A DNA stretch of 37,764 nt from contig CAYOIH010000003.1 of NCBI GenBank assembly GCA_964404005.1, forward strand, positions 1 to 37,764, written 5' to 3'. This stretch comes from an uncultured Candidatus Saccharibacteria bacterium (GTDB taxonomy: Bacteria; Patescibacteriota; Minisyncoccia; Minisyncoccales; Staskawiczbacteraceae). A program made the position numbers and the translations under genes. The notes under the pieces were generated by a model. The model did not search any database. It saw only the letters and a program-made list of their open reading frames with translations, and had not been told where the DNA came from. Positions 2,404 to 37,764 of this stretch are shown one piece after another (the stretch's first letter is position 1; every line of letters begins with the position of its first letter).

Positions 2404-2437
2404 TTGCCCCTCGTGTATTTTTTTGGTAAGTTAAATT

Positions 2438-2740: not shown

Positions 2741-2816
2741 AAAAATTAATTAGGCTATTTTTTTGTCCTTCGGGCAATTTTTTGGTACAATGCAAAAATA
2801 CTTTAGATAATTTATT

Positions 2817-3737
2817 ATGATTAAAATATATCAAAAAAGAATTTCAGATTCCAAAATAAAAGAAATTTCAGAATTTAGGGCCGGATCTTGGATATGCGCG
2901 CAAAATGCGAGCGAAGGAGAGATAGCTGTTTTGGAAAAAGATTTTAAGCTGGATTTAAATATATTAAGGGATGCATTAGATCCTTATGAAGCTCCTCGTG
3001 TGGAAACAGAAAGGGGGATAGTGTATATATTTACGCGAGTGGCTCAAAAATCAGAAGAGAGAATTGTTACAGTTCCTTTGTTAATAGCTATTGGGCCGGA
3101 TTTTGTTTTAACGCTTTCCAAAGAAGAAAACCAGATTCTTAATAAGTTTATAGAAAGCGGGTTGAGCTTTACAACCACGCAAAAAACACAATTACTTTTG
3201 AGAATTCTTTCTGAAACAATAAAGAGTTATAATAGTTTTTTAACTTCTATAAGCAGGAATGTAAGAGAGGCAAGCGGGAGGGTCGGAAAAATAAACGAGA
3301 AAGTGATTATGAATTTTGTCGGTTTTGAAGAAGAGTTGAACGATTTTCTTTCGGCTCTTACCCACACGAATCCCGTTTTGCAAAATATTTTAGGAGGAAA
3401 ACTGATAAAACTTTACGAGCAAGATGGGGAACTAATGGAGGATTTAATTTTAAGCGCGAACCAGCTAATAAATCTTTGTCAATCTACGCTTAAAAATATT
3501 GTTAATATCAGGGAAGCTTATTCGACAATTGTTACAAATGACCTTAACCGAGTTATCAAACTATTTACTTCTTTCACTGTTATACTTACAATTCCTACGA
3601 TAATTGCCAGTTTATACGGTATGAACGTGGCGCTTCCTTTGGCGGGAAACCCGGAAGCTTTTTGGATGATATCATTGGCGATAGTGGTTATTGTTTCAGC
3701 TGTTTTATACGTATTTAGCAGAAATAGGTGGTTGTAG
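2817..3737 (+). CDS. corA: CorA-family Mg2+ transporter
   Basis: C-terminal two TMs with PTIIASLYGMN signature. Confidence 0.9.
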   Translation: MIKIYQKRISDSKIKEISEFRAGSWICAQNASEGEIAVLEKDFKLDLNILRDALDPYEAPRVETERGIVYIFTRVAQKSEERIVTVPLLIAIGPDFVLTLSKEENQILNKFIESGLSFTTTQKTQLLLRILSETIKSYNSFLTSISRNVREASGRVGKINEKVIMNFVGFEEELNDFLSALTHTNPVLQNILGGKLIKLYEQDGELMEDLILSANQLINLCQSTLKNIVNIREAYSTIVTNDLNRVIKLFTSFTVILTIPTIIASLYGMNVALPLAGNPEAFWMISLAIVVIVSAVLYVFSRNRWL

Positions 3738-10431: not shown

Positions 10432-13074
10432 ATGAAAAAAAATTGGCACACAATTTCATTAGAAAAAGTTTTTATTGAAACAGCGGGCACAAGAGATGGT
10501 CTCAACAGCGTCGTGGCTATAGAGAGACTTAAAAAGTTTGGACGAAACACCCTTCCTCAAGAAAAACCGTATTCCAAAATACGGCTGTTTTTGAGTCAGT
10601 TTAATAGTCCCTTGATGTACATTTTGCTTGCGACCGTTGTTATTTCATCATTATTAAAGCACTATTCAGACGCCATTTTTATTGTTGTTGTATTGTTTAT
10701 TAACACCACTGTTGGATTTTATCAAGAAAATAAAGCTAATCAATCACTTCTCGCTCTCAAGAAGATGGTAAAAGTTAGGACAAAAGTTTTACGGGATGGA
10801 CACGAAAAAGAAATAGACAGCGAAGAATTAGTTGTTGGCGATGTGGTGTTTTTGAAATCGGGTGATAAGGTGCCAGCCGACGGTCGTATTTTCGAATCAA
10901 AGGGATTGAAAATAAATGAAGCGAGTCTTACCGGCGAATGGCAAGCGGTTGAAAAAGATTTAGAACGAACAAATGCGGTTTTTATGGGAACGATTGTAGA
11001 AGAAGGGCGGGCAACGATAGTGGTTGTTGCTACTGGCATCAATACGCAGATTGGAGAAGTTGTGTCGCTTCTTAAAGAGACAAAAGAACGCAAAACTCCG
11101 CTTCAGAAAAAAATCGCAATTCTCTCAAATTGGCTTGGAGTTTTTATTTTATCTTTTATCGTTATTATTATCATTGAGGGTTATTTTACTGAAAAGAATT
11201 TTGTTGACGTTTTTATAGCCTCCCTTGCTCTTGCAGTTTCGGCGATACCCGCAGGGTTGCTTCCAGCCATTACTGTCATATTAGCCCTGGGAATGCGGCG
11301 TATTTTTAAGCAAAAAGGTTTGGTAAGAAAACTTGCCGCCACAGAAACCTTGGGAAGCGTAACTGTCATTTGCACCGATAAAACAGGCACTCTTACAGAA
11401 GGAAAAATGCAAGTAAGCCATATTTTAACAAGCACAAAAGAATTGATGGGAGACAGTATTAACGGACTTGCTAACGGCAAAAATGTTAATGGCGTTGAAT
11501 CGCATATTTCAGCGTTAAAAATTGCCACTTTGGTAAATGATGCATTTGTGGAAAATCCAGAAGCGGAACTGCAAGAATGGGTAGTGCGGGGCAGACCAAC
11601 AGATAAAGCCCTACTATTAGCTGGAATGCAGTCGGGTTTGAACAAACAAGAATTGGAAAAACAATATCCCGTATTGGACAGGATTAGTTTTGAATCAGAA
11701 TATAAGTTTGCCGCCACATTCTGCAAGAAAGATAAAAAACATAATATGCTTTATGTTATTGGAGCTCCCGAAGAAATTATTAATCGTTCCGTCAGTTTGG
11801 ATATTGATAGCAAAAAGGGAAAATTAGGAACGGTCCAGGCCGACGAATTGATAAAAAAACTTGAAGCGCTCACGCAGAAAGGATTGCGAGTTGTTGCCTG
11901 CGCCCATAAAGATTATGATACTGAAACAAAATACCAGAATCTCACCGAATTGGTAAATGGGCTTTCGCTTGTCGGTTTTATCGCCCTCAAAGACCCGCTT
12001 CGCCAAGACGCTAAAGAATCTATCGCTATTACCAAGAAGGCCGGCATCCGCACGGTCATTGTTACCGGAGACCATAAATTTACAGCTAAGGCCATTGCTG
12101 AAGAAATTGGCCTTGAAGCAGAAGACGAAAACATAATGGAAGGCAAAGAACTGGAAATGATAACGGATGACGAGTTAAAAGAAAAATCAAAAATTATCTC
12201 CATTTATGCCCGTGTTTCTCCGCGCCATAAACTGCGTATTGTTGACGCGCTCCAAGCTAATGGAGAAGTGGTGGCAATGCTCGGCGATGGCGTGAATGAC
12301 GCTCCAGCCCTCAAGTCAGCTGATATTGGAGTTGCTGTTGGTTCTGGCACGGATGTGGCAAAAGAAGTGGCCGATCTGGTTTTATTGGATGATAATTTTA
12401 AGACGATATTAAAAGCTATTGAGCAAGGCAGGGTGATTTTTCAAAACATTCGCAAAGTGTTTGTTTATCTTGTGGTAAATGATTTTTCAGAACTCTGTTT
12501 ATTTTTAGCAAGTATGGCAATGGGGTTTCCGCTTCCATTATTACCCGCACAGATTCTTTGGATAAACCTTATAGAGAGCGGATTTCCAGATATTGCTCTC
12601 ACCACCGAGCAGGAGACCAAGGGGCTAATGGATGAGAAGCCAAGAAATCCTAAAGAATCGATATTAAATAAAGCAATGAAGCAATGGATGACTGCTATTT
12701 TCTTTATCACCGGGTTAGATGGGTTTTTATTTTTTATTTTTTTCTGGAAGTTTACTGGTGACCTTGATAAAACGCGAACGATGGTTTTCGTATTTATGTG
12801 TGTAGCTTCCCTTGCCATTGCTTTCTCGGTTCGCTCATTCAAAAAAACAATTTTCAGGAGAGATATATTCTCCAATTATTATTTGGTTGGCGGTGTAGCC
12901 ATTAGTTTTATTTTGCTTCTAATAAGCTTATATCTCCCGCCCTTGCAGAAACTTTTGTCCACTCAGCCATTGGGTGTAGCGGAGTGGGCTATAATTTTTG
13001 CCGTCAGCTTAATGGAGATTTCGTTGATTGAATTTTTCAAAAAGAGATTTTTTGTTGCTGATATAAGAGTATAA
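10432..13074 (+). CDS. P-type ATPase, P2-type (Ca2+-ATPase-like) with altered ion-site residues
   Basis: DKTGT, TGE(W), DPLR, TGD, GDGVNDAPAL, PAQILWINL. Confidence 0.93.
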   Translation: MKKNWHTISLEKVFIETAGTRDGLNSVVAIERLKKFGRNTLPQEKPYSKIRLFLSQFNSPLMYILLATVVISSLLKHYSDAIFIVVVLFINTTVGFYQENKANQSLLALKKMVKVRTKVLRDGHEKEIDSEELVVGDVVFLKSGDKVPADGRIFESKGLKINEASLTGEWQAVEKDLERTNAVFMGTIVEEGRATIVVVATGINTQIGEVVSLLKETKERKTPLQKKIAILSNWLGVFILSFIVIIIIEGYFTEKNFVDVFIASLALAVSAIPAGLLPAITVILALGMRRIFKQKGLVRKLAATETLGSVTVICTDKTGTLTEGKMQVSHILTSTKELMGDSINGLANGKNVNGVESHISALKIATLVNDAFVENPEAELQEWVVRGRPTDKALLLAGMQSGLNKQELEKQYPVLDRISFESEYKFAATFCKKDKKHNMLYVIGAPEEIINRSVSLDIDSKKGKLGTVQADELIKKLEALTQKGLRVVACAHKDYDTETKYQNLTELVNGLSLVGFIALKDPLRQDAKESIAITKKAGIRTVIVTGDHKFTAKAIAEEIGLEAEDENIMEGKELEMITDDELKEKSKIISIYARVSPRHKLRIVDALQANGEVVAMLGDGVNDAPALKSADIGVAVGSGTDVAKEVADLVLLDDNFKTILKAIEQGRVIFQNIRKVFVYLVVNDFSELCLFLASMAMGFPLPLLPAQILWINLIESGFPDIALTTEQETKGLMDEKPRNPKESILNKAMKQWMTAIFFITGLDGFLFFIFFWKFTGDLDKTRTMVFVFMCVASLAIAFSVRSFKKTIFRRDIFSNYYLVGGVAISFILLLISLYLPPLQKLLSTQPLGVAEWAIIFAVSLMEISLIEFFKKRFFVADIRV

Positions 13075-26229: not shown

Positions 26230-26655
26230 ATGGCAAAAGAATTAAAAGCAGTCGTAAAAATACAAATTCCAGCCGGTAAAGCAACGCCAGCGCCCCCAAT
26301 AGGGCCTGCGTTAGCTCAGCACGGGTTAAATATCGCAGAGTTCTGCCAAAAGTTTAATGCGGCAACCCAGGCAATGGTGGGATTTACAATTCCGGCCGAG
26401 GTTACAATTTATAAGGACAGGTCTTATACTTTTAAACTAAAAACTCCTCTCGCGGCCGAACTTATCAGAAAAGTAATTGGAATTGAGAAAGGAAGTGGCG
26501 TCCCAAATAAAACCAAAGTCGGCAAGATAACAAAAGCCCAATTAAAGGAAATCGCCATAAAAAAAATGCCGGATTTGAACACAACAGACATTGAACAAGC
26601 GATAAAAATTATCGCGGGCACAGCAAAAAATATGGGGATAGAAGTCGTGAATTAG
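26230..26655 (+). CDS. rplK: 50S ribosomal protein uL11
   Basis: [34 protein letters not shown]. Confidence 0.98.
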
Positions 26656-26675
26656 CAGTCCTGAAATAACAATTT

Positions 26676-26707
26676 AAAACACAGCTATTGCATAGCTGTG
26701 TTTTTTT
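26676..26707 (+). terminator. Intrinsic terminator after rplK
   Basis: CACAGCTAT-TGC-ATAGCTGTG-T7. Confidence 0.9.
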
Positions 26708-26779
26708 GTTGCAAAACTTAACAACATATTTTTGTTGTAAAAGGTCGAAAAAATTAAAAATCATTGTCCTCGTAAAATT

Positions 26780-27025
26780 GTGATTTCCACAATTAAAAAG
26801 TTTGCGGTAGGAACTGCCGCAACCGTAGCAGGTTTATTCGGCTTAGCCGCTTCAACCTTTGCGGCAGGCGAGATAGTTGTCTTGCCTGAAACGGCAGTCG
26901 CGGATCTGACCGGCAACGCCAGCCAGATCATGTCGGATCTCTGGATATTGGTTGCGTTAGCAATCGGTATCCCGATGGGATTCTACATTCTCCGCAAGGT
27001 TATCGCTTTAATTCCTAAACACTAA
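26780..27025 (+). CDS. Filamentous-phage major coat (pVIII)-like procoat protein
   Basis: 28-aa signal peptide ending STFA|AGE, 53-aa mature part: acidic N-terminus, amphipathic helix, one TM, basic C-terminus RKVIALIPKH. Confidence 0.7.
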   Translation: MISTIKKFAVGTAATVAGLFGLAASTFAAGEIVVLPETAVADLTGNASQIMSDLWILVALAIGIPMGFYILRKVIALIPKH

Positions 27026-27083
27026 AAGCGAACGGGGTTGGGCTCGTAGAGAGGCGGGCCCAACCTTCGGGACTTAAACAGAT

Positions 27084-27239
27084 ATGTTTATCAATTGGAC
27101 TCAGGCTATGACAGATGCGGTGCTTGCCAGCGCTACTGGTTTGATCACTGATTTGACGCCCCTGCTTACAATAATCATCGGCATCGGAATAGGGTTGATT
27201 GTCTTTTACGCCATAATCTCTGCGATAAGAGGACACTAA
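27084..27239 (+). CDS. Second coat-like protein, 51 aa, no signal peptide (not in ORF track)
   Basis: MFINWTQAMTDAVLASATGLITDLTPLLTIIIGIGIGLIVFYAIISAIRGH; ungapped similarity to the upstream coat-like protein. Confidence 0.7.
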   Translation: MFINWTQAMTDAVLASATGLITDLTPLLTIIIGIGIGLIVFYAIISAIRGH

Positions 27240-27245
27240 AAGTTA

Positions 27246-27548
27246 ATGGATGACATACTGCACATTGCCTTTGATTGCTTTAACGTAGCCCGATATATCA
27301 TTTCCAATATCGGATCTTTGTTTGGATACTTGTTTGCTCCGCTAACAGGGCTCTTTAATTTTGCAAAGGGTTTTTTTGACGGCATGGCAAGCACTCCGCC
27401 GTCAACGTCTGTCAGTTGGGTTTTTCCGGAAAATGTAATGGCGGTATTCAATGCGATTCCGTATTTCTCGGTTATTGAGTATGCCTGCGGAGTAGGCATC
27501 GCAATTTTAGTTTTAATTTTCATATTCCGCCGTCTGGTGGATTTTTAG
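27246..27548 (+). CDS. Hydrophobic minor-coat (pVI)-like protein
   Basis: 100 aa, amphipathic N-half, C-terminal TM followed by RR; position within the coat cluster. Confidence 0.55.
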   Translation: MDDILHIAFDCFNVARYIISNIGSLFGYLFAPLTGLFNFAKGFFDGMASTPPSTSVSWVFPENVMAVFNAIPYFSVIEYACGVGIAILVLIFIFRRLVDF

Positions 27549-27549
27549 C

Positions 27550-28740
27550 ATGCAAAAACTCAAACAAAAATACATTATATTTCTAATCGTGAGTTTGTTT
27601 TTGTTTTGCCGCGCATTGCAGGCGTCAGCCGAGGCAGTGCAGACATACAACGCCACAATAAACCTGGACGGCACTGGGGCTGATGTAAAATTTGATTGCA
27701 TTTACGGGCAGAACTCAGAGTCTTGGGCCTTAATCTATACCAATGGATACACCTATATCTACATTGAGGGCGGAGCAGGAAGCGGAGCTGTATGCCAAAA
27801 CGGGTATGTTGATTTAAACTTTGGGAATTTTCCTTACTATACTTCGCACCATCTTGGAGGACTCAACGGCGACATAGGCAACTACTACATTTTCTATAAC
27901 ACAAACTCAAGCTTTCCTTATCACTGCACTTATCCGTATCAATCCAGCTGGGGATTGGACGGCTGTATGGCAGGAATGTATCAATATGCAATTTTCAGCC
28001 AGACAGCAACTCCGCCAGCCGCACATTGGACTACAACACCAGCTCCGCCCACAAGCCCGACGTTGATTATTGATACTCCGGCCAGCGGCACAACTATTAC
28101 AGATAGTTCAACAACGTTGTCCGGCAGTTATGCCGCTTTGCACATAGGCACGTTTGGCTACGGGTATTTGCGCATTAGATTCAAAAATACAAATAATGGA
28201 ATTTATTCTTATCCGTACACCATACCTCTGTCAAATTATGAAGGCATTTTTTCAACACCTTTGTCCAACTTTGGCATTACAGAAAACGGAGAGTGGGAAT
28301 TGATAGCAGACCAAGAATTGGACGCAAACACTTTTGTTGAATTGACGCCGGACCCTGCATACACATTGAATTTCGATGTCAGCGGCAACTCAATACCTTA
28401 CACATTCATTAACTGGAACGATTGGTATACAGAAAACGCCGCAGGCGGGTATACTTATCCGTCTGATTTTGCATACTCCATTGAGGGATTTTTCCGGCCT
28501 ATATTCACCAATGCTTATGAGTTCGCAAATCAAACATTGAGATATTTTAATGCCGAAACTTCATACAGCAAGGGAAACCAGATCGGATTAATGTTTCCGA
28601 CAACCCAGGCATACATCAACAAAATTAACATCTTTTTTGGAGGATTTCCTTTAATCCAGTTTTTTGAGTTTGTGATAGTTGTAATGCTTGGCGTCTTTAT
28701 TGTGCGAACGATATTCAAATTCATTCCATTTTTCGGTTAG
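27550..28740 (+). CDS. Adsorption protein (pIII)-like: signal peptide, Cys/Tyr-rich domain, Pro/Thr linker, Ig-like domain, C-terminal membrane anchor
   Basis: ALQASA|EA cleavage-like site, TATPPAAHWTTTPAPPTSP linker, C-terminal TM ending RTIFKFIPFFG. Confidence 0.6.
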   Translation: MQKLKQKYIIFLIVSLFLFCRALQASAEAVQTYNATINLDGTGADVKFDCIYGQNSESWALIYTNGYTYIYIEGGAGSGAVCQNGYVDLNFGNFPYYTSHHLGGLNGDIGNYYIFYNTNSSFPYHCTYPYQSSWGLDGCMAGMYQYAIFSQTATPPAAHWTTTPAPPTSPTLIIDTPASGTTITDSSTTLSGSYAALHIGTFGYGYLRIRFKNTNNGIYSYPYTIPLSNYEGIFSTPLSNFGITENGEWELIADQELDANTFVELTPDPAYTLNFDVSGNSIPYTFINWNDWYTENAAGGYTYPSDFAYSIEGFFRPIFTNAYEFANQTLRYFNAETSYSKGNQIGLMFPTTQAYINKINIFFGGFPLIQFFEFVIVVMLGVFIVRTIFKFIPFFG

Positions 28741-28904
28741 TTGCCGGCGCGGCTTTGCTGATATGTCCCACGAGGACGCAAAAACAGCATTTAAGCCCGC
28801 CGACAATTGTCCGAAAAAAACAATCTGACGAGTGGCGAGTGAAGATAGAAATTACGCCGCAAATCGAACATCGTTTGAAAGATAAATTGATAATTGCGAT
28901 GTAA

Positions 28905-29169
28905 AAGAAAACCCGCCCTTTGTGGTAATTTCAGACGGGTTTCTCTTTGTGGGATTATCTCACAGGGATAAAGTTTTATCAAGCCATTTAACTGGGCTCT
29001 CTGCGGCTCCAAATAGCAGAGCGGAAGTGCAAGGGACATAAATCGATGCACATTTGTGTCCCGTGAACTTCCTCTCATGCAATGGTCTTTCGGCCTACCT
29101 CTCGAAAAACAGAGGCGGGCTGAAAGACCTTTGCTCCTACAACGGAAATGCTGTATTTATACGGCGGAG
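28905..29169 (+). other. Hairpin-dense non-coding region (ssDNA origin/packaging signal or structured RNA)
   Basis: Seven consecutive stem-loops, with G-T wobbles on the + strand in four of them. Confidence 0.65.
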
Positions 29170-29217
29170 AAATTAAAAATTAAGAATAGTAACAAAATCC
29201 GGCAAAAAATTAAAAAT

Positions 29218-29382
29218 ATGACAAACAAAAACAAGCCACGAGTTTATTGGGACGAGAACGAACAGCGCTACTACATCACATTTTTTGAGGACACAAAATC
29301 CGACGAGATAATATCTGCCTGGGAAAGGTTTAAAGGTCGCAAATCAAGACAAAAAAAAGAACATGATAAAAGTACCAATTAA
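29218..29382 (+). CDS. Small hypothetical protein (54 aa)
   Basis: A-rich leader then MTNKNKPRVYWDENEQRYYITFFED...; start 29218 preferred over 29056. Confidence 0.55.
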   Translation: MTNKNKPRVYWDENEQRYYITFFEDTKSDEIISAWERFKGRKSRQKKEHDKSTN

Positions 29383-29578
29383 AACAAAAGATGACGCTAT
29401 GAAATTATTTAATTTATTTAAGAAAAAAGAATTAGAGGGTTTAGACAAAGCTCTGGGCATGGGGCTGATTACAGAAGAAGAAAAATTGAGAATTGCGGCA
29501 ACCCGGGCGGCCGAAACGCTGGACAAGTTTTTAGAGAAAAAAGGTCGACCAAAACATCAAATTACGAGAAAATTGTGA
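29363..29578 (+). CDS. Small charged helical protein (71 aa)
   Basis: ORF overlapping the previous gene; GLITEEE resembles short oligomerisation (SHOCT-like) helices; C-terminal KKGRPK. Confidence 0.55.
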   Translation: MIKVPIKTKDDAMKLFNLFKKKELEGLDKALGMGLITEEEKLRIAATRAAETLDKFLEKKGRPKHQITRKL

Positions 29579-29592
29579 TTTCTCCTTGACTT

Positions 29593-29760
29593 ATGAAAAC
29601 CTTTCGCGCACCCTTTGACAGACGATTGAAAAATGGCAAGCGTGGGTTCAAAATGGGGCAGTCCAATGAAAGGAAGTACTTTGTTCACTACGCAAAAGGA
29701 AAATACACGATAATTGACCTCTCATTAAAAAAACGAGGACACTCTCAAAAATTCAAATGA
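29593..29760 (+). CDS. Highly basic 55-aa protein, candidate nucleic-acid binder (not in ORF track)
   Basis: MKTFRAPFDRRLKNGKRGFKMGQSNERKYFVHYAKGKYTIIDLSLKKRGHSQKFK; ATGA overlap with next ORF. Confidence 0.55.
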   Translation: MKTFRAPFDRRLKNGKRGFKMGQSNERKYFVHYAKGKYTIIDLSLKKRGHSQKFK

Positions 29761-29846
29761 CATTAGATTTTATTTTAGGCATTTTTTATGGGATAGCGTT
29801 CATGGTGATTGTTTGGATTTTTTTAAGCAGTAGACCACAAATATGA
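29757..29846 (+). CDS. 29-aa single-TM microprotein (pVII/pIX-like; not in ORF track)
   Basis: MTLDFILGIFYGIAFMVIVWIFLSSRPQI; ATGA overlaps at both ends. Confidence 0.6.
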   Translation: MTLDFILGIFYGIAFMVIVWIFLSSRPQI

Positions 29847-30112
29847 ATTGCACACTTTCACAGCCGGTAAATTATTTAGGCAATCCGCCGGGCAAAAACG
29901 ACCCGTTTGCTTTTACGCAGATGAATTGCGACGGTTCAATAGGCGAGGGCTCAACAATAGAGCAAATAGAGGGCACGGGGACATTTTGGATTTCCAAACA
30001 GCTTGATTACGGGCAGGTCTTAATTTTAACCTTTCTTTTAATTTTCTTTGTCGGGTTTGTTGTAAAATTCCTTTGGAATTTCAACAAGCAAGACAGCGAC
30101 CAAAAACTATGA
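29843..30112 (+). CDS. 89-aa protein with two Cys and a C-terminal TM (minor-coat-like)
   Basis: YGQVLILTFLLIFFVGFVVKFLW TM; ATGA overlaps at both ends. Confidence 0.65.
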   Translation: MNCTLSQPVNYLGNPPGKNDPFAFTQMNCDGSIGEGSTIEQIEGTGTFWISKQLDYGQVLILTFLLIFFVGFVVKFLWNFNKQDSDQKL

Positions 30113-30267
30113 CATTTCTTAATTCCAGCATAAGCGAATTCTTGGGTATGATTTTTCTTTACCCGTTCGTTTTCTACATGATATTTATACTATTTACCGG
30201 CATTGAGTCGGCGTTGATTTTCTGGTTCCGCAGAAAAGATTACCCCTCAAGGCCATCAGATCTATGA
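30109..30267 (+). CDS. 52-aa single-TM microprotein
   Basis: MTFLNSSISEFLGMIFLYPFVFYMIFILFTGIESALIFWFRRK...; start at ATGA overlap. Confidence 0.6.
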   Translation: MTFLNSSISEFLGMIFLYPFVFYMIFILFTGIESALIFWFRRKDYPSRPSDL

Positions 30268-30407
30268 TAGAAACAAACGAAATTTTAACAAACGCTTTCT
30301 TTGCTTTTTTCTATTGCCTGGGATGGGTGGTTGATTACATTTGGGCGGGGGGCCTGGCGGTGGCGATCGTTTTAACTCTCACAAGATTAATAGCAAAAAA
30401 AGATTAA
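30264..30407 (+). CDS. 47-aa hydrophobic microprotein (not in ORF track)
   Basis: MIETNEILTNAFFAFFYCLGWVVDYIWAGGLAVAIVLTLTRLIAKKD; ATGA overlap; stops 4 nt before the MTase start. Confidence 0.6.
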   Translation: MIETNEILTNAFFAFFYCLGWVVDYIWAGGLAVAIVLTLTRLIAKKD

Positions 30408-30411
30408 ATTT

Positions 30412-31833
30412 ATGGCAAAATCAATTAAAAAATTAACCTGGCACACAGAAAAAAGGAAAGTGAAAGACCTCGTGCCTTTTGAGGGCAATCCCCGGATAAT
30501 GACTGACAAACAGTTAGAGGACCTCAAAAAGAGCGTCGCTAAATTTGATTTAGTAGAGATTCCGGCAACAGACACAAACAACAAAATTATTGCTGGACAC
30601 CAGCGGTTGAAAATTATGCAGTTGTTGGGCAGAGGCGACGAGGAGATTGATGTAAGGGTACCAAACCGGAAACTCAGCGAAGCCGAGTTTAAGGAATACA
30701 ATCTCCGTAGCAACAAAAACACCGGGGAGTGGAACTTCGATGAGCTGGCCAATTTTGACGAAGCTTTATTAAAAGAATTTGGTTTTGACGAAAATGAATT
30801 AGACAACATCTTCGGATTGGAAAAAGCAGATGACTTTGACTTGCAAAAGGAAACCGAAAAAGCAATACAGAAACCTCACGGAGTAAAACTTGGAGATCTC
30901 TGGCAACTCGGCGAACATAGATTGATGGTGGGCAACGCAACAGATCCGAAAGCATGGAAAAAGTTGATGGGTAATGAGCGATTTGATTTTATGTTTACAG
31001 ATCCGCCGTACAGATTAGCTTATTGCAAAAAACGAGTCAGAAAAGTAAAAACCAAAGACGGCTGGAAAATAAAAGCCGAGAGGGAATATGAAAGCGTCGG
31101 CGAAACAGATGCGATGGGAAAGGGCTTCGGTTACAAGGGTAATCGAAAATACGAAGGCGTTATTCAAGCCGGTGGCGTTCCAGAATTTGACGAATGGCTT
31201 TCAATAGCTAACCAGTTTAAGAATGAAAAAGGTTCAAACGTTATGGTGTTCGAGAATTGGAGAAACACCCCCGATCTTTGGGGAGCCATAGAAAAGTATT
31301 GGGCAATTCAAAACATGGTAATCTGGCACACGCCAAATCGGACTCAAGGATTTTCAGCAAAGTATAAATTTTTTAACAGATTTGATGTGGCTCCGGTTGC
31401 CGGCGACGGAGTGAATAACGAATTGGACGAAGACGAGTTCAGAAAATATCTGGAGGACAAAGGTCAAAAATTATTAGACACTTACGAAATATCGCTTTAC
31501 GCCAAACAAGGTAAGCCGGATTGGAATAAGGACAAAGGCACAAAATTTTGGGTGATGGGCGACCATGTAACACACGCAACGGATTCAGCTTCTCAATCCG
31601 GCCAGAATTTAATTTTCGGCACAAAGCCAATTCCAATATTAGTTCCGTACATAAAAATACTTAGTCCGAGGAACGGCATTGTGATGGAACCTTTCGGCGG
31701 ATCGGGATCAACAATAATTGCATCGGAAATTATGAAAAGGAAATGCAGAGCGATTGAATTGTCGCCTTTATACGCAGAAGTGATATTAGCGAGGTTTGAG
31801 GGGTTTACCGGTATAAAGGCCAAAAAAGCGTAA
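30412..31833 (+). CDS. ParB/Srx-like domain fused to beta-class N4/N6 DNA methyltransferase
   Basis: LVPFEGNPR, IIAGHQRL; GDLWQLGEHRLMVG; FTDPPY precedes TKP and EPFGGSGST. Confidence 0.9.
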   Translation: MAKSIKKLTWHTEKRKVKDLVPFEGNPRIMTDKQLEDLKKSVAKFDLVEIPATDTNNKIIAGHQRLKIMQLLGRGDEEIDVRVPNRKLSEAEFKEYNLRSNKNTGEWNFDELANFDEALLKEFGFDENELDNIFGLEKADDFDLQKETEKAIQKPHGVKLGDLWQLGEHRLMVGNATDPKAWKKLMGNERFDFMFTDPPYRLAYCKKRVRKVKTKDGWKIKAEREYESVGETDAMGKGFGYKGNRKYEGVIQAGGVPEFDEWLSIANQFKNEKGSNVMVFENWRNTPDLWGAIEKYWAIQNMVIWHTPNRTQGFSAKYKFFNRFDVAPVAGDGVNNELDEDEFRKYLEDKGQKLLDTYEISLYAKQGKPDWNKDKGTKFWVMGDHVTHATDSASQSGQNLIFGTKPIPILVPYIKILSPRNGIVMEPFGGSGSTIIASEIMKRKCRAIELSPLYAEVILARFEGFTGIKAKKA

Positions 31834-31900
31834 AATATGGGGATTTTGAGCAACCACAAGGGCACCCAACAAGAGTTTGGGGGCTGAATAGGGTAAATAT

Positions 31901-32293
31901 ATGGGTCAAGAGCAAATAACAAAAACACCTGATATATCAGGTAATAACAGGGAAAAAAGGGACGATAATGGCAGGTTTAGACCGGGGTTGAGCGGAAATC
32001 CAACCGGAAGGCCAACCGGCTGCGTTTCAATTACGGCAGAAATCAAAAAGAAACTTCAAGAAGTTCCTGATGGCCAGCAAAAATCATATTTGGAGTTGTT
32101 GATCAATAGAATTTTAAAACAGGCGGTCGTTGATGGAAACGAACAAATGATAAAACAGATTTGGAGTTACATAGATGGCACGCCCAGGCCAGCAGAAAAT
32201 CCGGATCCAGTCGCACCGATTGTGCATATCAATCTTTTGAATAAAAACGATACGAAAGTTAGAGAAGATAGTAGCGAGAAAATTTTAGCTTAA
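31901..32293 (+). CDS. DUF5681-like / terminase small subunit-like protein
   Basis: RDDNGRFRPGLSGNPTGRP motif, AVVDGN..IKQIWSYIDGTP; follows a phage-type MTase. Confidence 0.7.
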   Translation: MGQEQITKTPDISGNNREKRDDNGRFRPGLSGNPTGRPTGCVSITAEIKKKLQEVPDGQQKSYLELLINRILKQAVVDGNEQMIKQIWSYIDGTPRPAENPDPVAPIVHINLLNKNDTKVREDSSEKILA

Positions 32294-32372
32294 TTTTTCA
32301 ACACCTGATTCAATAGGGTGTTTTTTTCGGCTGTTGCATTTTTTTCGAAAAAACGTCAAAATAAAATAAAAA

Positions 32373-33542
32373 ATGGCAAAAGTCCAACCCCAAACAGAAC
32401 TAAATTTATTTTCACAAGACCCGATAAATTGTCTCAATTTAGATAATCCGTTTTTCACTTCGCATTTAATCACATATATTGGAAACAAAAGGCGGCTATT
32501 ACCCTTTCTTTATAAAGGTTTTTTAGCAATAAGAAAAAAAATAGGTAAAGATAAAATTATTGTGTTTGATGGTTTCTCGGGAAGCGGTGCTGTTTCACGA
32601 TTATTAAAAGCATTCGCAAGCGAGCTTCATGTGAACGATTTAGAGGACTATTCTGAAACTATAAATAGTGCTTATCTTGCTAACAAATCAGAAATAAATA
32701 TGGAAAAATTAGGCGAATATATAAACTGGTTGAATGAGAACAAATTAAAAATAAAAGGTAAGCCGAAGGGCTTTATAGAAAAAAACTATTCTCCAAAAAA
32801 AGATAACGATATTCAGCCTGGCGAGAGGGTTTTTTATACAAATGTTAACGCGAAAATAATAGATAACCTGAGAAAACTTATAGACGAAGTGCCAAAGGAA
32901 TACAAAAAATTCTGCTTAGCATCACTTTTAGTGAGATCGTCTATTCATACCAATACATCAGGCGTTTTTAAGGGTTTTCATAAAAATAATGGTAATGGGC
33001 ACTTTGGTGGACGTGGAGAGAATGCGCTTTCCAGAATTAAAAAAGAAATTAATCTTGATATACCTGAACTTTCTGATTTTGAGTGTCCGGTTTATGTACA
33101 CAAAAAAGATCTAAACGAACTGGTAAAAGATGAGAATCTTCCTACTTTCGATTTGGCTTATTACGACCCTCCGTACAATCAGCATCCATACGGCTCTAAC
33201 TATTTTATGCTGAATATAATAAACGGCGGTAAGCCTATAGAAATACAAGATGGTGTAAGTGGAATAGCTAGGGAGTGGAACAGATCCGATTATAATAAAA
33301 GAAACTCCGCCGAAAAAGCGATGGATCAGCTTTTGTCCGATACTCGAGCGAAATTTATAGCTATTTCTTATAACAACGAGGGGATAATACCGATAGAGTC
33401 ATTCAAAAATATTCTTTCTAAATATGGTAGCTGGGATTTAATGGAACAAGATTATAATACTTACCGTGGCTCAAGAAATTTACGAAATAGAGATATAAAG
33501 GTTAAGGAACAGCTTTGGGTTCTTGAGAAAAAGAGTGCCTAA
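32373..33542 (+). CDS. Alpha-class (Dam/D12-like) N6-adenine DNA methyltransferase
   Basis: YIGNKRRLL, FDGFSGSGAVS (motif I), VND, YYDPPYN (motif IV), ISYNNEG. Confidence 0.9.
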   Translation: MAKVQPQTELNLFSQDPINCLNLDNPFFTSHLITYIGNKRRLLPFLYKGFLAIRKKIGKDKIIVFDGFSGSGAVSRLLKAFASELHVNDLEDYSETINSAYLANKSEINMEKLGEYINWLNENKLKIKGKPKGFIEKNYSPKKDNDIQPGERVFYTNVNAKIIDNLRKLIDEVPKEYKKFCLASLLVRSSIHTNTSGVFKGFHKNNGNGHFGGRGENALSRIKKEINLDIPELSDFECPVYVHKKDLNELVKDENLPTFDLAYYDPPYNQHPYGSNYFMLNIINGGKPIEIQDGVSGIAREWNRSDYNKRNSAEKAMDQLLSDTRAKFIAISYNNEGIIPIESFKNILSKYGSWDLMEQDYNTYRGSRNLRNRDIKVKEQLWVLEKKSA

Positions 33543-34384
33543 ATTTCGCCTAATTTTTGCAAGCGAGTTATAGATTTATCGATAACCATTAGCATAATAC
33601 CTACTATTTCTTTCTCACTCCATTTTGGCATCCTGGCGAATATCGTTGCCGGGCAGATTTGAGTGTCGCCATGGCGATAGCAATTAACATAAATTTGGTT
33701 CAAAGGAAGCCAATCGTTTCCAGCTATTAACCTCATTAGAATAGAGGAGTCTGTTCCCTTAAAACGAGAACTGTGAGATTGTTTTTCAAAAATGTTGAAA
33801 TCTTCTTTAAGAAAAAAGTCGAATCCTTCCGCAAAAACTACGTAGGGATTATAACCATAAAAACTTGTGAGTGTTTTGATGGCATTAGCATTTTTAGCAA
33901 ATCTTTCTATTGCATTACCTTGTGCTTGTGGTGGTCTTTGATCCCTAAGAATAGAACTATCGAGGCCCTTCTTTTTCCAATCAGAGTCACTGATTGGAGT
34001 ATAGCCGTCGTACTCACCTTGATGTTTTACTTCCAAAGAGCCGATAATATGGTTAAAATTATCTTTTTTTGATTGCACAAAAAATATACCGCCATCGGGT
34101 TTGATCCCGCCAGCTGAAGCATGCGCTTGCAAACTCTCCAATTTCCTTTCCGGCAGGTGAGCTAATTTAGCTCCACGATTTATATAAGCGGTAGCATATT
34201 TGGCGTCTAAATCAGTAAGTCCTAATGTTTGGAGATTATTGAAACTTAACTTAGGATATTTTTTTTGTATAGTTTCCCAAACAATATTTGAAGCGATTTT
34301 GGCCGTATCTTCTTGCCCCTTTGACAAGAGATTAAAAGGAGGGCTCATGCGAGTTTTTAAATGTTGCCTATGTTTTTTTTCCAT
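33539..34384 (-). CDS. EcoRI-family type II restriction endonuclease
   Basis: IKPDGGI...LEVKHQG...QGNAIERFAKN...PYVVFAEG matches the EcoRI motifs PDGG, EAKHQG, GNAIER..KN, PYVLFLEG. Confidence 0.85.
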   Translation of the reverse strand: MEKKHRQHLKTRMSPPFNLLSKGQEDTAKIASNIVWETIQKKYPKLSFNNLQTLGLTDLDAKYATAYINRGAKLAHLPERKLESLQAHASAGGIKPDGGIFFVQSKKDNFNHIIGSLEVKHQGEYDGYTPISDSDWKKKGLDSSILRDQRPPQAQGNAIERFAKNANAIKTLTSFYGYNPYVVFAEGFDFFLKEDFNIFEKQSHSSRFKGTDSSILMRLIAGNDWLPLNQIYVNCYRHGDTQICPATIFARMPKWSEKEIVGIMLMVIDKSITRLQKLGEI

Positions 34385-34514
34385 AAGATTGATACTATTA
34401 AAATAAGCGTATCACAAAAATTATATTTTTGCCATCTCTAAAATTTACTTTGCAACAAAAGGTTGTAAGTTTGCCTATTGCAATTATTTCTTGTATATGC
34501 TATATAAAAAATAT

Positions 34515-35159
34515 ATGGCAAATAAAAACATAAAAGGATGGGACTCACTCCATCCAAAACAACAGCAACTATACGAACTTCTGCTTAAAAATAGTGAAGG
34601 GTTGACTCTCGAATCTATGAGGGAGGATCTTGATGTAAGCGCTATAAATACAGTTGTGTATCACCTAAAACAATTGGAGAAAAAAGGATACATACGCAGG
34701 CAGGGAACCAACGGTAGAATAGAAGTGCTTTCGGCGCCGGTTCAAGATATAGTTTACCTTAATCTCTATGGCATGGTGGGCTGCGGACCGGATGGATTTT
34801 TCAACGGCGACAATGTTGTCGATAGAATTCCATTCCCGGCCAAAAGAATGCGTGTAAATGCAGGGTCGTTTTTGGTTGAGGCAAGAGGGAATTCAATGGA
34901 GCCAATGATTCATGATAAAGATTTGGTTCTCGTTGATGAATCTCCAGTTAACAGTGGAGATGTCGCTGTTGTTGTTTACGGCAACGGTGCCGTTTTAAAA
35001 AAGATTTATAAAGAAAAAAATAATATTATTCTTCAATCACTTAATCCGAAAGTAGAACCGTTTGTTGTTAATTCGGGTGAAATTACCACAGTTGGCATTG
35101 TGCGTGGCGTAGTTCACAATTTCAGCGAGAGGAATTTAAAAGTCAAAAAAAGCCGCTAA
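34515..35159 (+). CDS. LexA-like S24 repressor (wHTH plus self-cleaving peptidase)
   Basis: TVVYHLKQLEKKGYIRR wHTH, VGCG cleavage site, GNSM Ser, VLKK Lys. Confidence 0.88.
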   Translation: MANKNIKGWDSLHPKQQQLYELLLKNSEGLTLESMREDLDVSAINTVVYHLKQLEKKGYIRRQGTNGRIEVLSAPVQDIVYLNLYGMVGCGPDGFFNGDNVVDRIPFPAKRMRVNAGSFLVEARGNSMEPMIHDKDLVLVDESPVNSGDVAVVVYGNGAVLKKIYKEKNNIILQSLNPKVEPFVVNSGEITTVGIVRGVVHNFSERNLKVKKSR

Positions 35160-35178
35160 TTATTAGGCGGTTTTTTTG
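35146..35178 (+). terminator. Intrinsic terminator overlapping the repressor stop codon
   Basis: A-run GCCGC.TAAT..ATTA.GCGGT T-run. Confidence 0.7.
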
Positions 35179-35322
35179 GGCGTTTAAATCGGAGAAGGAG
35201 TTTCCTTCCCGATAGAACTCCGGTTCGATTCCTTCGAGAAGCTAGTTATGAATGAGTTTAGCTTACACTTTAACTTTATCATACTGACACCCAAAAAAGC
35301 AAATAATAAACAATTAAAACAG

Positions 35323-35469
35323 ATGAGCAAAGAATCAAAAACAGTCACACATGGACGAAGTGCTGAAACTGGCCGTTTTACTACGGTAGAAAAAGCCAGA
35401 GAGCATCCAAGGACACATGTAGTTGAGAGAGTTCCAAAACCTGGATATGGTGACACAAAAAAGAAATAA
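35323..35469 (+). CDS. 48-aa basic protein with GRSAETGRF motif
   Basis: MSKESKTVTHGRSAETGRFTTVEKAREHPRTHVVERVPKPGYGDTKKK; A-rich leader; next ATG 1 nt after stop. Confidence 0.7.
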   Translation: MSKESKTVTHGRSAETGRFTTVEKAREHPRTHVVERVPKPGYGDTKKK

Positions 35470-35470
35470 T

Positions 35471-35827
35471 ATGATACAACTTTTATGGCAAAAATGCCAA
35501 GGAGATGTTTGGGGTTCCTTCTTGAACGTTGATTTGAGTCACAATCATTTCGATAATATGGAAGGGGTTTATGTAATTTGGCAAGGCCGAGGACCTGTCG
35601 TTCGAGTTGGTCAGGGTTTCGTTAGGGATCGTGTAGCCGATCATCGCACAAATAGAGCGGTAACAAGGTACAACAATTTGTATGTGACTTGGGCTTCAGT
35701 TCCGGCAATATATCGCGACGGCGTAGAGCGGTATCTTGCTGATACATTAAAGCCAGTAGTAGGCGACGCCTTTCCAGACGTCACGCCAATTTCGGTTAAC
35801 TTACCCGAATCTTGCAGAATATCATAG
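35471..35827 (+). CDS. Divergent GIY-YIG superfamily protein
   Basis: GVYVIW...VRVGQG..RDRV..H...VERYL...LKP. Confidence 0.65.
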   Translation: MIQLLWQKCQGDVWGSFLNVDLSHNHFDNMEGVYVIWQGRGPVVRVGQGFVRDRVADHRTNRAVTRYNNLYVTWASVPAIYRDGVERYLADTLKPVVGDAFPDVTPISVNLPESCRIS

Positions 35828-35950
35828 CCAATTAGGATGATGTAAAAGGAAAGCCACCATAGGGAAGGATGGTGGCTCCCAAAAACTTTGAGTATTTTTT
35901 TAGGGTTTTTGAATTTAAGGAGTGGGCTTAAGTAAATCAAAACACATATA

Positions 35951-37444
35951 ATGAGCGAGAAAACAGAAGACAAGGTTTATTTTTCGGACATATTTCAGGT
36001 TGAACATTCCGTAGTCGAAAGCTATGGAGCTTTAGATATTTCTCTTGTTTGCGATAACCCGGCCTTTGTTGATCCTTTTCTCATTTTTGCTAATCCAGAA
36101 TATAAAAATCTCCATGATTTTATTGTTGCCTATTTAAGATTTTTGAGGGATTTATCCATAAAAAATCAGGGGCATGATTTAAACGATGGAAATTTTAATC
36201 AATATTATAAATTTCCAGAAGTAAAACAGGCATGGCTTGGCTACTCAGTTTCTGGCAATGCCGGCTTGGGACTGGGTTTAGAGTTTGCAGAATCTCTGTA
36301 TAAAAATTTGCATAAAATTTTTTCAAAATTTGGAGATGAAAAAATAACAGAAACTTCGCATCTTGAAAAGCTTTGTCTGATTGAGAATGGGGTGGGCGTG
36401 GACAAGATAAGCGATTTCACCTTAAACCTAATAAAGAAATTTTTGCTGGGATATACTCAGGAATTTGCGAATAAATATTTAGACGAAAGATTTTTAACAG
36501 ATTTTGCCGTACGTAAGGTTGAATTTAATTTGGAAAAAGGCATTTGGATGGATGCACATTTTATGTTACCTACGCTAGAACGTGATGGCAAAAAGGATTT
36601 CGTATTACTTGTTCCAAAAAGTATACTGGCCAGGGAAGATACATGGATTTCCAGAAATGATTTTTTGGAAAACGATGTGGCGATTTTTGAAGCTATCCCA
36701 AACTCCGAGTTACGAGCCAAAGTAAATAAGTTCTTTTTTGATAATCTGAAAATTAAATTCGGCAAGGATAAAAAACCAGAAAAAGATTATTCAAAAAACA
36801 GCAAAGCGGGCGCCTTGTTAAAAACTGTTTGGGAGTACCCGGACATATTAGATTATTACATTAAATTAAAGGAACAAAAAAAGAATGATGCGTTGAAAAT
36901 GCACATCGCCGTCCCGGAAGACATTAATTTTTTTCTTGATGCCGGAGAAATAAAGAAAGAATTCGCCAAGAAAAAGATAGAAAAAATGACGTCTTTCGAC
37001 GATTGCATAGCCAGACTTTATTTTTTTAAAAAAACATTGGAGTCGAATAGTAATGATTTGTATTTAAAGGGAAAGCCTCTTCAGGAAAATCAATTACAGT
37101 TAATGTTCAAAAATACAACCTATGGTAGCTTGTTTGACTATAATTCAGAAGTTGATAATGGGAGAGGTCCGATTGATTTTATAATTTCCTATGGCAGTCA
37201 AGATAAGGCCGGACTGGAGTTAAAACGCGCATCGAATTCAAAGCTTAAGAAAAATTTGCTTAATCAGGGGAAAATTTACCAGGATGCAAGTAATCTGAAG
37301 TGTGTTATAAAGGCGATTTTTTTCTTTTCTGATGTGGAGTTGCAACGAGTAAACGGAATATTGCAGGAGATAAGGAAGCCCGTAGATAACAGGGAAATTT
37401 TCTTAATTGATTGCCGGAGAAAACCCTCTGCTTCAAATGTATAA
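35951..37444 (+). CDS. Putative PD-(D/E)XK nuclease, candidate defence protein
   Basis: C-terminal EVDNGRGPIDF...GLELKRASN (E...D...ExK); N-terminal FVDPFLIF, GVDKISD. Confidence 0.55.
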   Translation: MSEKTEDKVYFSDIFQVEHSVVESYGALDISLVCDNPAFVDPFLIFANPEYKNLHDFIVAYLRFLRDLSIKNQGHDLNDGNFNQYYKFPEVKQAWLGYSVSGNAGLGLGLEFAESLYKNLHKIFSKFGDEKITETSHLEKLCLIENGVGVDKISDFTLNLIKKFLLGYTQEFANKYLDERFLTDFAVRKVEFNLEKGIWMDAHFMLPTLERDGKKDFVLLVPKSILAREDTWISRNDFLENDVAIFEAIPNSELRAKVNKFFFDNLKIKFGKDKKPEKDYSKNSKAGALLKTVWEYPDILDYYIKLKEQKKNDALKMHIAVPEDINFFLDAGEIKKEFAKKKIEKMTSFDDCIARLYFFKKTLESNSNDLYLKGKPLQENQLQLMFKNTTYGSLFDYNSEVDNGRGPIDFIISYGSQDKAGLELKRASNSKLKKNLLNQGKIYQDASNLKCVIKAIFFFSDVELQRVNGILQEIRKPVDNREIFLIDCRRKPSASNV

Positions 37445-37643
37445 CGGGTTTTGAGCAATTTTTAGGGGTTTTGTGAGGTTGCCAGAAAAAAGACGGGTAT
37501 TTGCTGGTCTGGAGGCAGGAAGGGCGACCGGCAGCGCATAGGCTTGACTTATTGGAGGGTTTCTGGTAGCGTCAAAAATAAGAACAAATTAATAAATTAT
37601 TAACCATTTCCCGCAAGGGAGCGTGTGGCAGGTAAAAAACCTG

Positions 37644-37670
37644 TTGACATGGCTGCATCAGTGGTATAAT
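37644..37670 (+). promoter_or_regulatory. Promoter reading out of the window
   Basis: TTGACA-15 nt-TATAAT with TG extended -10. Confidence 0.6.
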
Positions 37671-37764
37671 AAATAGCAAGAGGAGTAATCCTCGTGTTGT
37701 TAATAACAACAAACTACTTACGCCACTCGCATGCAGCCAGTGGCGTTTGTAGTTATGTTATTAG

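Follow-up and report, generated by a model that had tools for sequence, protein, structure and literature searches.

We analyzed a 37,764-nt stretch of DNA (the window), which is the complete contig C3 of a 767-kb metagenome-assembled genome (MAG; G000) of an uncultured Candidatus Saccharibacteria bacterium; the genome comprises 54 contigs and is 96.7% complete. The window carries the Pfam-confirmed host genes gyrB, ybaB, secE, nusG, and rplK (encoding ribosomal protein L11; stop codon at 26655) and, downstream of them, a gene module at 26780-32293 that had been predicted from its sequence to encode the virion proteins of an inovirus-like element lacking an assembly motor and a replicase. All open reading frames (ORFs) named in this original prediction are present on the + strand, where they form a tightly packed block and mostly abut or overlap (Table 1). 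The evidence described below supports the view that Staskawiczbacteria-type Parcubacteria carry a site-specific integrative mobile element and that this module is its conserved core.

Table 1. Features of the module and its surroundings in the window (TM, transmembrane; positions are those of the window)
Feature	Position	Strand	Remarks
rplK 3' end, element-supplied	26627..26655	+	C-terminus ..VVN*; empty sites read ..VKD*
Terminator hairpin of rplK	26676..26704	+	Perfect 13-bp inverted repeat, then T run
Conserved left-end control region	26719..26779	+	Palindrome ACAACA (26721-26726)...TGTTGT (26733-26738)
Coat-like gene 1, 81 aa	26780..27025	+	Sec signal peptide ending TFA|AGE; 53-aa mature part acidic/TM/basic
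Coat-like gene 2, 51 aa	27084..27239	+	No signal peptide; paralog of gene 1
g100, 100-aa hydrophobic protein	27246..27548	+	Position of minor coat or membrane partner
g396, 396 aa	27550..28740	+	Secreted; N-terminal signal helix, C-terminal TM anchor
Structured intergenic region, 477 nt, noncoding	28741..29217	+	Hairpin array
s54, small soluble protein	29218..29382	+	Open frame in 18/19 distinct copies
s71, small helical soluble protein	29363..29578	+	Sole soluble gene common to large elements and 4-kb circles
s55, small basic protein	29593..29760	+	5' part recurs on other contigs of the MAG that resemble mobile genetic elements
t29, 29-aa single-TM protein	29757..29846	+	One TM segment
t89, ectodomain and conserved C-terminal TM anchor	29843..30112	+	Relatives have bigger variable ectodomains (181-205 aa)
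t64, small TM protein	30073..30267	+	Likely start ATG 30109; upstream codons contain stops in two relatives
t47, small TM protein	30264..30407	+	Directly before coat genes in circular form
ParB-like domain + N6/N4 DNA methyltransferase fusion (ParB-methylase)	30412..31833	+	Pfam, PHROGs
DUF5681 protein	31901..32293	+	PF18932, E 4.4e-9
Variable cargo of window copy	32373..37444	.	Pfam; other restriction/defense genes in other copies
D12 adenine methylase	32373-33542		Cargo; Pfam
EcoRI-family endonuclease	33539-34384	-	Cargo; Pfam
LexA/S24-type repressor	34491-35159		Cargo; Pfam
Cargo ORFs of 73, 134, and 497 aa	within 32373..37444		No known family
Conserved pre-integrase region	37543..37764	+	TTGACA-17-TATAAT and hairpin; contig ends here

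Solid recognition in Pfam and PHROGs was confined to the ParB-methylase and the DUF5681 protein, with weak matches to phrog_1646 for the two coat-like genes. These two genes belong to one family with three subtypes, in which they align with a third paralog found in other loci. When the profile of this family (A2) was compared with 177,635 distinct PDB sequences, six matches were obtained at E ≤ 10, and all six were to the inovirus major coat protein pVIII (entries for If1, fd, M13, and IKe; best E value, 0.0046), with the alignment in register over the mature peptide. The marginal E values notwithstanding, the specificity of this result to pVIII is notable. Nine of the 14 members of the coat family matched phrog_1646 ("major coat protein") with a best E value of 6.5e-5, and the window copies had values of 0.041 (gene 1) and 0.07 (gene 2). 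Together, the profile matches support the originally predicted relationship of both genes to the major coat protein of inoviruses. A relation to pilins had been named as one alternative; we found no pilin family in Pfam at E ≤ 1 and no prepilin motif (class III, G|F-x-x-x-E) in these proteins, and coat-like gene 1 has a Sec-type A-x-A site as read from its sequence. In some relatives, natural fusions of 203 and 249 aa carry an extra N-terminal domain behind the signal peptide, as expected if the N-terminus of the coat protein is displayed or exposed.

The protein encoded by g396 has 44 homologs among 5.8 billion proteins, most of which cover just the C-terminal 56-61% of the query. The N-terminal domain is unalignable among these relatives, and the final ~60 residues are nearly invariant (alignment A1). 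An AlphaFold2 model (predicted local distance difference test [pLDDT] score, 66.8) has a signal helix, a beta domain (residues 28-151), a Pro/Thr linker, an Ig-like sandwich (residues 171-275), and three C-terminal helices of low confidence; a fold search with this model against PDB and BFVD returned generic Ig/FN3 matches only. The combination of a variable N-terminal domain with conserved C-terminal helices and a TM segment, as deduced from alignment and model, has the layout of an adsorption protein. The t89 protein follows the same logic, with a variable ectodomain on a conserved anchor. The neighboring g100 is kept in all loci, including the 4-kb circles described below; a complex prediction for the g396 C-terminus and g100 gave a score of 0.07, which is evidence neither way.

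The core genes are intact and under purifying selection. The ratio of nonsynonymous to synonymous substitutions (dN/dS, pairwise) was 0.04-0.29 in all 13 module genes tested, compared to 0.04 for rplK, with values of 0.13, 0.06, 0.11, and 0.04 for coat-like gene 1, coat-like gene 2, g100, and the ParB-methylase, 0.19, 0.13, and 0.29 for s54, s71, and s55, and 0.10 (four distinct copies), 0.10, 0.06, and 0.09 for t29, t89, t64, and t47, respectively. Among the distinct gene copies tested, internal stops were limited to one copy of s54 and one copy of the DUF5681 gene. The original prediction had argued from the intact, tightly packed frames that the module is not simply decaying, and the dN/dS values agree with this argument, making simple decay unlikely. 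Specifically, a decaying inovirus prophage from which pI and Rep have been deleted would explain why the module lacks functions that every known inovirus has (Roux et al., PMC6813254). We consider this explanation extremely improbable, because every locus seen has the same gene set without pI and Rep, the circular forms have this content as well, and the genes show the selection and the near absence of internal stops just described.

The distribution of the module is sporadic: g396 relatives are present in 5 of 61 related genomes, this one counted, and in 2 of 401 genomes of the class, namely, this genome and one marginal match. The gene order recurs, as far as contigs reach, in a second copy in the same MAG, in 4 genome loci, and in 34 of 34 large-type metagenome loci, and runs coat, an optional third coat paralog, coat, g100, g396, intergenic region, s54, s71, s55, t29, t89, t64, t47, ParB-methylase, and DUF5681. 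Several of these loci represent the same sequence from different collections, and the 38 are not independent cases. The synteny of coat, g396, ParB-methylase, and DUF5681 that the original prediction had proposed to examine is thus kept throughout. The ParB-methylase, which is 90-93% identical across loci, matched phrog_498 (2.3e-67, residues 7-471), the ParB-like phrog_620 (1.1e-24, residues 11-147), and PF01555 (6.7e-14, residues 192-458). For the DUF5681 protein, the matches were to the family DUF5681 itself and to PHROGs of unknown function; there was no relevant PDB sequence match, and the structural model (pLDDT, 54; three helices at 44-92) was too poor for a fold search. The suggestion that this protein is small-terminase-like thus found no backing in these searches.

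Comparison with relatives supports that the module is the left arm of an 11- to 15-kb integrative element in the 3' end of rplK, which replaces that end; the element thus extends past position 32293, where the island had originally been taken to end. In the genus, host genes come after rplK at all 24 of 24 loci, with the dCMP deaminase gene directly next to it in 13 of 24 and the module in none. G061, the closest syntenic relative, has the order rplK, the module, five other genes, an integrase gene, a degenerate rplK 3' end, an MNT/HepT pair, a second, native-type rplK 3' end with the native terminator, and then the dCMP deaminase gene. Of the two degenerate rplK 3' end copies downstream of the G061 integrase gene, the outer one matches the native end of the empty-site relatives. 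Based on the empty sites and the order in G061, integration took place in the last codons of rplK, for which the element supplied a new end. The crossover core of attL is probably AAATATGGGGATAGAAGT, at about 26627-26645 within the element-supplied rplK end, with the exact crossover deduced from the comparison. Other copies reside in the 3' end of the gap gene, with a displaced gap 3' end beyond the integrase gene in G062, and a third insertion site follows rpsI. Tyrosine integrases (PF00589) are encoded on contig C28 of the window's genome (1.3e-30) and in G061 (2.7e-27), with relatives in G062 and G063 at 93-95%. The gap-site integrases share 93-100% identity among themselves but just 38-40% with the rplK-site type, and the integrase type goes with the insertion site.

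The window itself ends short of an integrase gene. The interval 37543-37754 is 90% identical to a sequence of G061 (L015, 18588-18802) that lies ~150 nt upstream of the integrase gene, and 37543-37764 has weaker matches upstream of the integrase gene on C28 and in locus L014. The contig thus stops ~150 nt before the integrase position of the nearest relative, and its own right end and integrase are unassembled. The original statement that no integrase is present accordingly holds for the island and the window but not for the element, since the elements of the relatives bear one and the window contig ends in the pre-integrase region. The second copy in the same MAG has ~80% nucleotide identity and is split over contigs C52 and C28 at gap. 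The host gap gene runs off contig C35, and in one contig of a public run the gap terminator is connected to position 26712; this loose end reading into the gap terminator fits the second copy. The cargo of that copy comprises an EcoRI-type methylase, GmrSD-N/HNH, an OLD-family ATPase, a PD-(D/E)XK nuclease, AbiV, and a 447-aa ORF, followed by the integrase gene.

A filament or attachment appendage of the host, domesticated and vertically inherited, could account for intact, selected genes beside a ribosomal protein operon. Given that g396 is confined to 5 of 61 relatives, that the rplK site is empty in 24 of 24 genus relatives, and that integrases, displaced target ends, three insertion sites, free circles, and a MAG with two diverged copies are seen, we regard domestication, which the original prediction had proposed as one option, as very unlikely. 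Membership in a tailed prophage, for which the ParB-methylase and DUF5681 genes made the module a candidate, was rejected: host genes or att scars bound the module, and no capsid or terminase gene is linked to it.

Diverged relatives of the core exist as circularly permuted contigs of 3.9-4.0 kb. Seven diverged metagenome loci have a rotated gene order and lack the ParB-methylase, DUF5681, s54, s55, and integrase genes; their proteins are 37-53% identical to those of the window. Locus L091 has a terminal overlap of 151 nt (150 identical) inside the g396 gene, giving a 4,000-nt unit, and L094 has one of 207 nt (203 identical), giving a 3,859-nt unit; the terminal overlap of L090 is exact (107/107 nt). 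Loci L089, L090, and L091, from three metagenomes, are 99.9% identical and circularly permuted. The circles carry about 10 genes, all on one strand: two or three coat paralogs, a leaderless coat type, g100, and g396, together with a 58-aa TM ORF, s71, t89, and small TM ORFs. The s71 of the window belongs to no Pfam or PHROGs family, and s71 gave no usable match in the ESM Atlas. The intergenic region of the circles is structured (z score, -6.0). In a search with the coat profile, 185 clusters were obtained, and among the 120 listed, 25 had a longest contig of 3.9-4.7 kb, some of which may be the same contig. Within the intergenic region, the 4.0-kb circle has a 151-nt tandem duplication (L089, 3-288; L091, 1450-1740), each copy of which contains a TTGACA box and a 46-aa ORF with a zinc-ribbon-like CxxC...CxxC pattern and no Pfam family.

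On a circular reading of the element, the coat genes come directly after the small TM genes. The integrated form would then correspond to this circle cut between t47 and the first coat gene, at the place where the methylase gene, the DUF5681 gene, the cargo, the integrase gene, and attP sit, and the "rearranged order" of the small TM genes noted in the original prediction vanishes. In Ff phages, the order is V / VII-IX / VIII / III-VI / intergenic region, with gene III before gene VI. This parallel bears on the explanation that the element is not a virus but a mobile element, occurring as an island and as small plasmids, whose surface membrane proteins function, for example, as an adhesin in episymbiotic attachment, in exclusion, or in membrane remodeling, the coat likeness being a convergence among short TM peptides. 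Such an element would fit with the viral match being confined to the coat family and marginal, with the generic Ig-like adhesin domains of which g396 is built, and with defense-gene cargo as in genomic islands; moreover, plasmids that replicate without a protein of their own are known (ColE1 type). However, a 4-kb circle of about 10 genes, nearly all of which encode small membrane proteins, with no gene for plasmid replication, partition, or mobilization, is unlike known plasmids, its circular gene order parallels that of Ff, the six PDB matches are exclusively to pVIII among thousands of membrane proteins, and the tip-like proteins are hypervariable ectodomains on invariant anchors. On balance, we think that a nonvirion element is unlikely.

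The intergenic region at 28741-29217, in which the original prediction had noted a hairpin array after the 396-aa gene, folds far better than shuffled sequences (z score, -6.28; 0 of 100 shuffles as good). RNAalifold analysis of 16 large-type loci gave 67 pairs, of which 17 had compensatory changes. For 49 local pairs, 98.0% of cells were paired versus 40-43% when the partners were slid; changes on both sides were present in 12 of the 49 pairs versus 2-5 when slid, and the observed covariation was reached by 0 of 500 shuffles. These sequences represent about two clades and the structure was derived from the same sequences, so that independence is overstated by these numbers. Because many pairs are G-U, the fold is that of the + strand, i.e., of mRNA or + single-stranded DNA (ssDNA). 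An invariant 13-nt hairpin, GTCCCACGAGGAC, at 28765-28777 starts 25 nt after the g396 stop codon; this 13-mer is present once in each of 43 loci and is absent from the 4-kb circles. It is a candidate packaging or origin signal. No Rfam family matched in the window at gathering scores or in L014 at E ≤ 1, so the hairpin region and the pre-integrase leader are not known RNA families.

The lack of a pI/Zot ATPase and of Rep, as originally noted for the island, holds in every copy examined. For Zot/pI (PF05707), the 767-kb genome yielded no match at E ≤ 1; none of 25 genus genomes has it, the carriers G006, G021, and G025 among them, nor was it found in G032; among the 61 relatives, two genomes had a match above the cutoff, both of other families. 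No Walker A motif was detected in real ORFs of 26650-37764, where matches were confined to short or antisense frames of ≤102 aa, or in real ORFs of seven contigs of the mini-type, and no HUH-like motif was detected in open frames of ≥80 aa of two circles. The Pfam and PHROGs scans of the module and cargo ORFs revealed no Rep family, the rest of the genome not having been searched for Rep families; Pfam likewise recognized no ATPase family in the island. Among 47 related loci, none is a complete inovirus of which the module might be a deletion derivative.

One way to supply these functions would be a helper: the element would be a satellite of an unseen, co-resident filamentous phage, encoding its own coat and tip proteins and borrowing a rolling-circle Rep and a pI-type ATPase. 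In line with this, motor and replicase are lacking in every copy, searches of MAGs would miss a helper that is episomal and unbinned, and inoviruses have been reported in genomes of the Candidate Phyla Radiation (CPR; PMC6813254). Because all 47 loci and the circles lack both functions, dependence on a helper would be ancient and universal. The satellite idea, raised in the original prediction, thus has the general absence of motor and replicase in its favor, and against it that no helper was seen: Zot is absent from the 25 genus genomes, carriers included, and its matches are restricted to the two genomes of other families. The Vibrio satellite phages RS1 and TLC likewise have an incomplete filamentous-phage gene set that needs functions in trans, but they keep replication and regulation genes and lack structural genes, the reverse of the element, which keeps structural-type genes and lacks replication and assembly genes. 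We therefore view a satellite as rather improbable.

Considering these data together, the best reading, to which we give about an even chance, is that the element represents a previously undescribed inovirus-like lineage without the hallmark motor and replicase. This is a virion reading in which the formation of particles is deduced and the source of the missing functions is left uncommitted. Several observations weigh against it. The coat match is short, marginal (E values of 0.005-0.05), and on the TM helix, and phrog_1646 was also matched in 6 of 14 control genomes at E ≤ 1. The original prediction had assigned g396 and the hydrophobic protein to pIII and pVI, respectively; the signal peptide, variable N-domains, and conserved C-terminal helices and TM segment of g396 fit, but PDB profile searches found no pIII or pVI match for either the g396 C-terminus or g100, neither protein has a PHROGs family (nor, for g100, a Pfam family), and the g396 fold search, with its generic Ig/FN3 matches, gives no link to pIII. 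The missing pI is the one gene that all known inoviruses have kept (PMC6813254). The 4-kb circles are tied to the window copy by homology of just 37-53% identity and could be tandem arrays instead of circles; no such circle is present in IMG/VR, and in L078 an unrelated gene borders the genes, pointing to a form that is integrated or rearranged. In its working, the element resembles a temperate filamentous phage, with which it shares the coat family; as it lacks pI, the defining marker, as well as Rep, we do not file it as a member of the Inoviridae.

Under the inovirus-like reading, we propose the following sequence of events. Excision by the integrase would yield a circle that brings the small TM genes (t29-t47) up against the coat genes, so that the order becomes Ff-like, i.e., small soluble, small TM, coat, and adsorption/minor proteins, and then the hairpin region. 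The coat proteins would insert in the cell membrane, that of gene 1 via Sec and that of gene 2 without a leader, and cover the element DNA there, probably in the form of the + strand, for which the invariant hairpin immediately downstream of g396 would be the mark. The g396 and g100 proteins would cap one end, with the hypervariable N-domain of g396 binding the next host, and the small TM proteins would do so at the opposite end; host functions or an unseen helper would provide for replication and supply the energy needed in extrusion. The ParB-methylase, DUF5681, s54, s55, and the integrase, which the 4-kb circles lack, may be additions for an integrated, restriction-exposed lifestyle. As a more specific version, which we consider possible though on the doubtful side, the lineage would consist of autonomous minimal filamentous or membrane-assembled CPR viruses of ~4 kb with no initiator or ATPase, in which host enzymes prime on the intergenic region and exit from the monoderm cell is motorless; the 11- to 15-kb forms would be temperate derivatives that gained the methylase and defense cargo, and all would have been missed by pI screens.

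The closest known system is that of Ff, If1, and IKe. The element shares with it ~50-aa major-coat-like proteins (acidic N-terminal part, one TM segment, basic C-terminal end) whose profile matches pVIII only, a small circular one-strand genome with a hairpin-rich intergenic region (seen in the relatives, the window copy being integrated), the circular order of soluble, small TM, coat, large adsorption-type with ~100-aa hydrophobic protein, and hairpin region, and the existence of integrated forms. It differs in lacking the pI/Zot ATPase, pIV, and Rep, in that g100 precedes g396 and neither matches pIII or pVI, in its unit size of 3.9-4.0 kb and its CPR host, and in the ParB-methylase, DUF5681, defense cargo, and integrase added by the large forms. 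The Pleolipoviridae and Plasmaviridae have small membrane proteins, a C-anchored spike, and integrative forms, have no capsid fold, and do not strictly require a packaging motor. The element resembles them in its small genome, small membrane proteins, C-anchored spike with a signal peptide, and integrative forms; in contrast to pleolipoviruses, its coat matches pVIII, it has no pleolipovirus-type NTPase gene, and it measures 4 kb versus 7-17 kb. Moreover, its CPR host has a cell wall, a further difference from these membrane-vesicle viruses. With tyrosine-integrase islands, it has in common the PF00589 integrase, a substituted target 3' end whose displaced copies are found at the far end, empty sites in relatives, and variable restriction-modification, OLD, AbiV, or GmrSD cargo; it differs in that its core is an inovirus-like block with no tailed-phage or conjugation module and in that it targets protein genes (rplK, gap, and rpsI) and no tRNA genes.

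Roux et al. (PMC6813254) describe pI as the sole marker shared by all known inoviruses and take it as the starting point of their screen; elements without pI would therefore have been missed. A lineage with pVIII-type coats but without pI and Rep is thus invisible to large-scale screens, all of which have been pI-anchored (PMC6813254). INPHARED phages gave no match with the g396 protein or the mini-circle DNA, PLSDB plasmids gave none with the mini-circle DNA, and IMG/VR gave none with A1 or the mini coat protein, the sole contig there (L103/L105) having been entered for a neighboring element. In the literature on patescibacterial inoviruses, Staskawiczbacteria, and CPR circular or plasmid elements, no such element is described in the titles and abstracts listed; the supplementary tables of PMC6813254, which possibly list CPR inoviruses, lie outside this search. 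If particles are made, the minimal gene set of a filamentous virus changes, and these would be the smallest such genomes (3.9-4.0 kb); if the element is not a virus, a 4-kb replicon of almost solely small membrane proteins is an unexplained kind of plasmid. The element is a rare, tractable, CPR-specific mobile element: its att sites are defined (rplK, gap, and rpsI), its adsorption-type protein is hypervariable, and it has a slot in which restriction/defense genes accumulate.

Public sequencing runs were examined as Logan contigs of DNA. Eleven lake-water DNA runs contain 0.91-0.95 of the sampled words of the sequence, and no RNA run is listed as containing it. In the contigs of four runs, none joins the element ends or bridges an empty rplK site, and contig depth over rplK resembles that over the cargo. 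Rare forms are beyond what contigs can show, and these runs therefore say nothing on excision or copy number.

At the left end of the module, the region 26719-26779 is 93-95% identical between rplK-site and gap-site elements, and the sequence farther upstream diverges; this conservation makes it the probable promoter/operator of the module. Between 26600 and 32500, a promoter scan gave 10 sites versus 12.4 in shuffled sequences, i.e., no excess, and 12 terminator-like sites were found versus 6.8 ± 2.8 in shuffled sequences. Ribosomal protein L1 (PF00687) was not found in G000 (96.7% complete), and rplA follows rplK in 0 of 24 genus relatives; a subgroup of Parcubacteria without L1 is known, and the pattern in G000 fits with it.

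The right end of the element has several features of its own. A conserved unit lies between the cargo and the integrase gene (window, 37543-37764; C28 [L008], ~1840-2290, minus strand; L014, 13000-13450), and in C28 and L014 its near-consensus TTGACA-17-TATAAT is followed by ~230 nt of hairpins that end in a terminator-like structure just before the integrase ATG; the unit could represent a small RNA or act as a leader that regulates the integrase gene. Just upstream of the integrase promoter, gap-site elements carry 26-28 nt that match the rplK 3' region of the window (23/26 bases; L008 [C28], ~2260-2290; L014, ~12995-13023), which may be a relic of an rplK-type att site. The 447-aa ORF of the second copy (C28 [L008], 2369-3712, minus strand), the last cargo gene, has no Pfam family and a markedly higher G+C content than its surroundings and looks foreign. 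In G061, the MNT/HepT pair (nucleotidyltransferase/HEPN RNase; L055, 3061-3776) lies between two successive pseudo rplK 3' ends and has the appearance of a further, very small insertion into this att site. The IMG/VR contig L103 (1-9300) carries a separate element with a diversity-generating retroelement (reverse transcriptase, 9.9e-18; bAvd, 5.6e-9), a collagen-like repeat protein, and a tyrosine integrase of its own. This element and the module are inserted in tandem at one gap 3' site, with the module downstream, which marks the gap 3' end as a hot spot of insertion.

The 5' part of s55 and its upstream TTGACTT box (29569-29732) recur with 78-83% nucleotide identity on contigs C29 (10940-11234), C37 (963-1118), and C51 (2806-2890) of the MAG. 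On C29 and C51, the s55-like stretch sits right after a C-terminal remnant of DUF5681, and the s55-like stretches are linked to a large serine-recombinase-type ORF (C29) and other defense-type genes. The s55 5' part with its TTGACTT box may be a regulatory or recombination module common to several elements.

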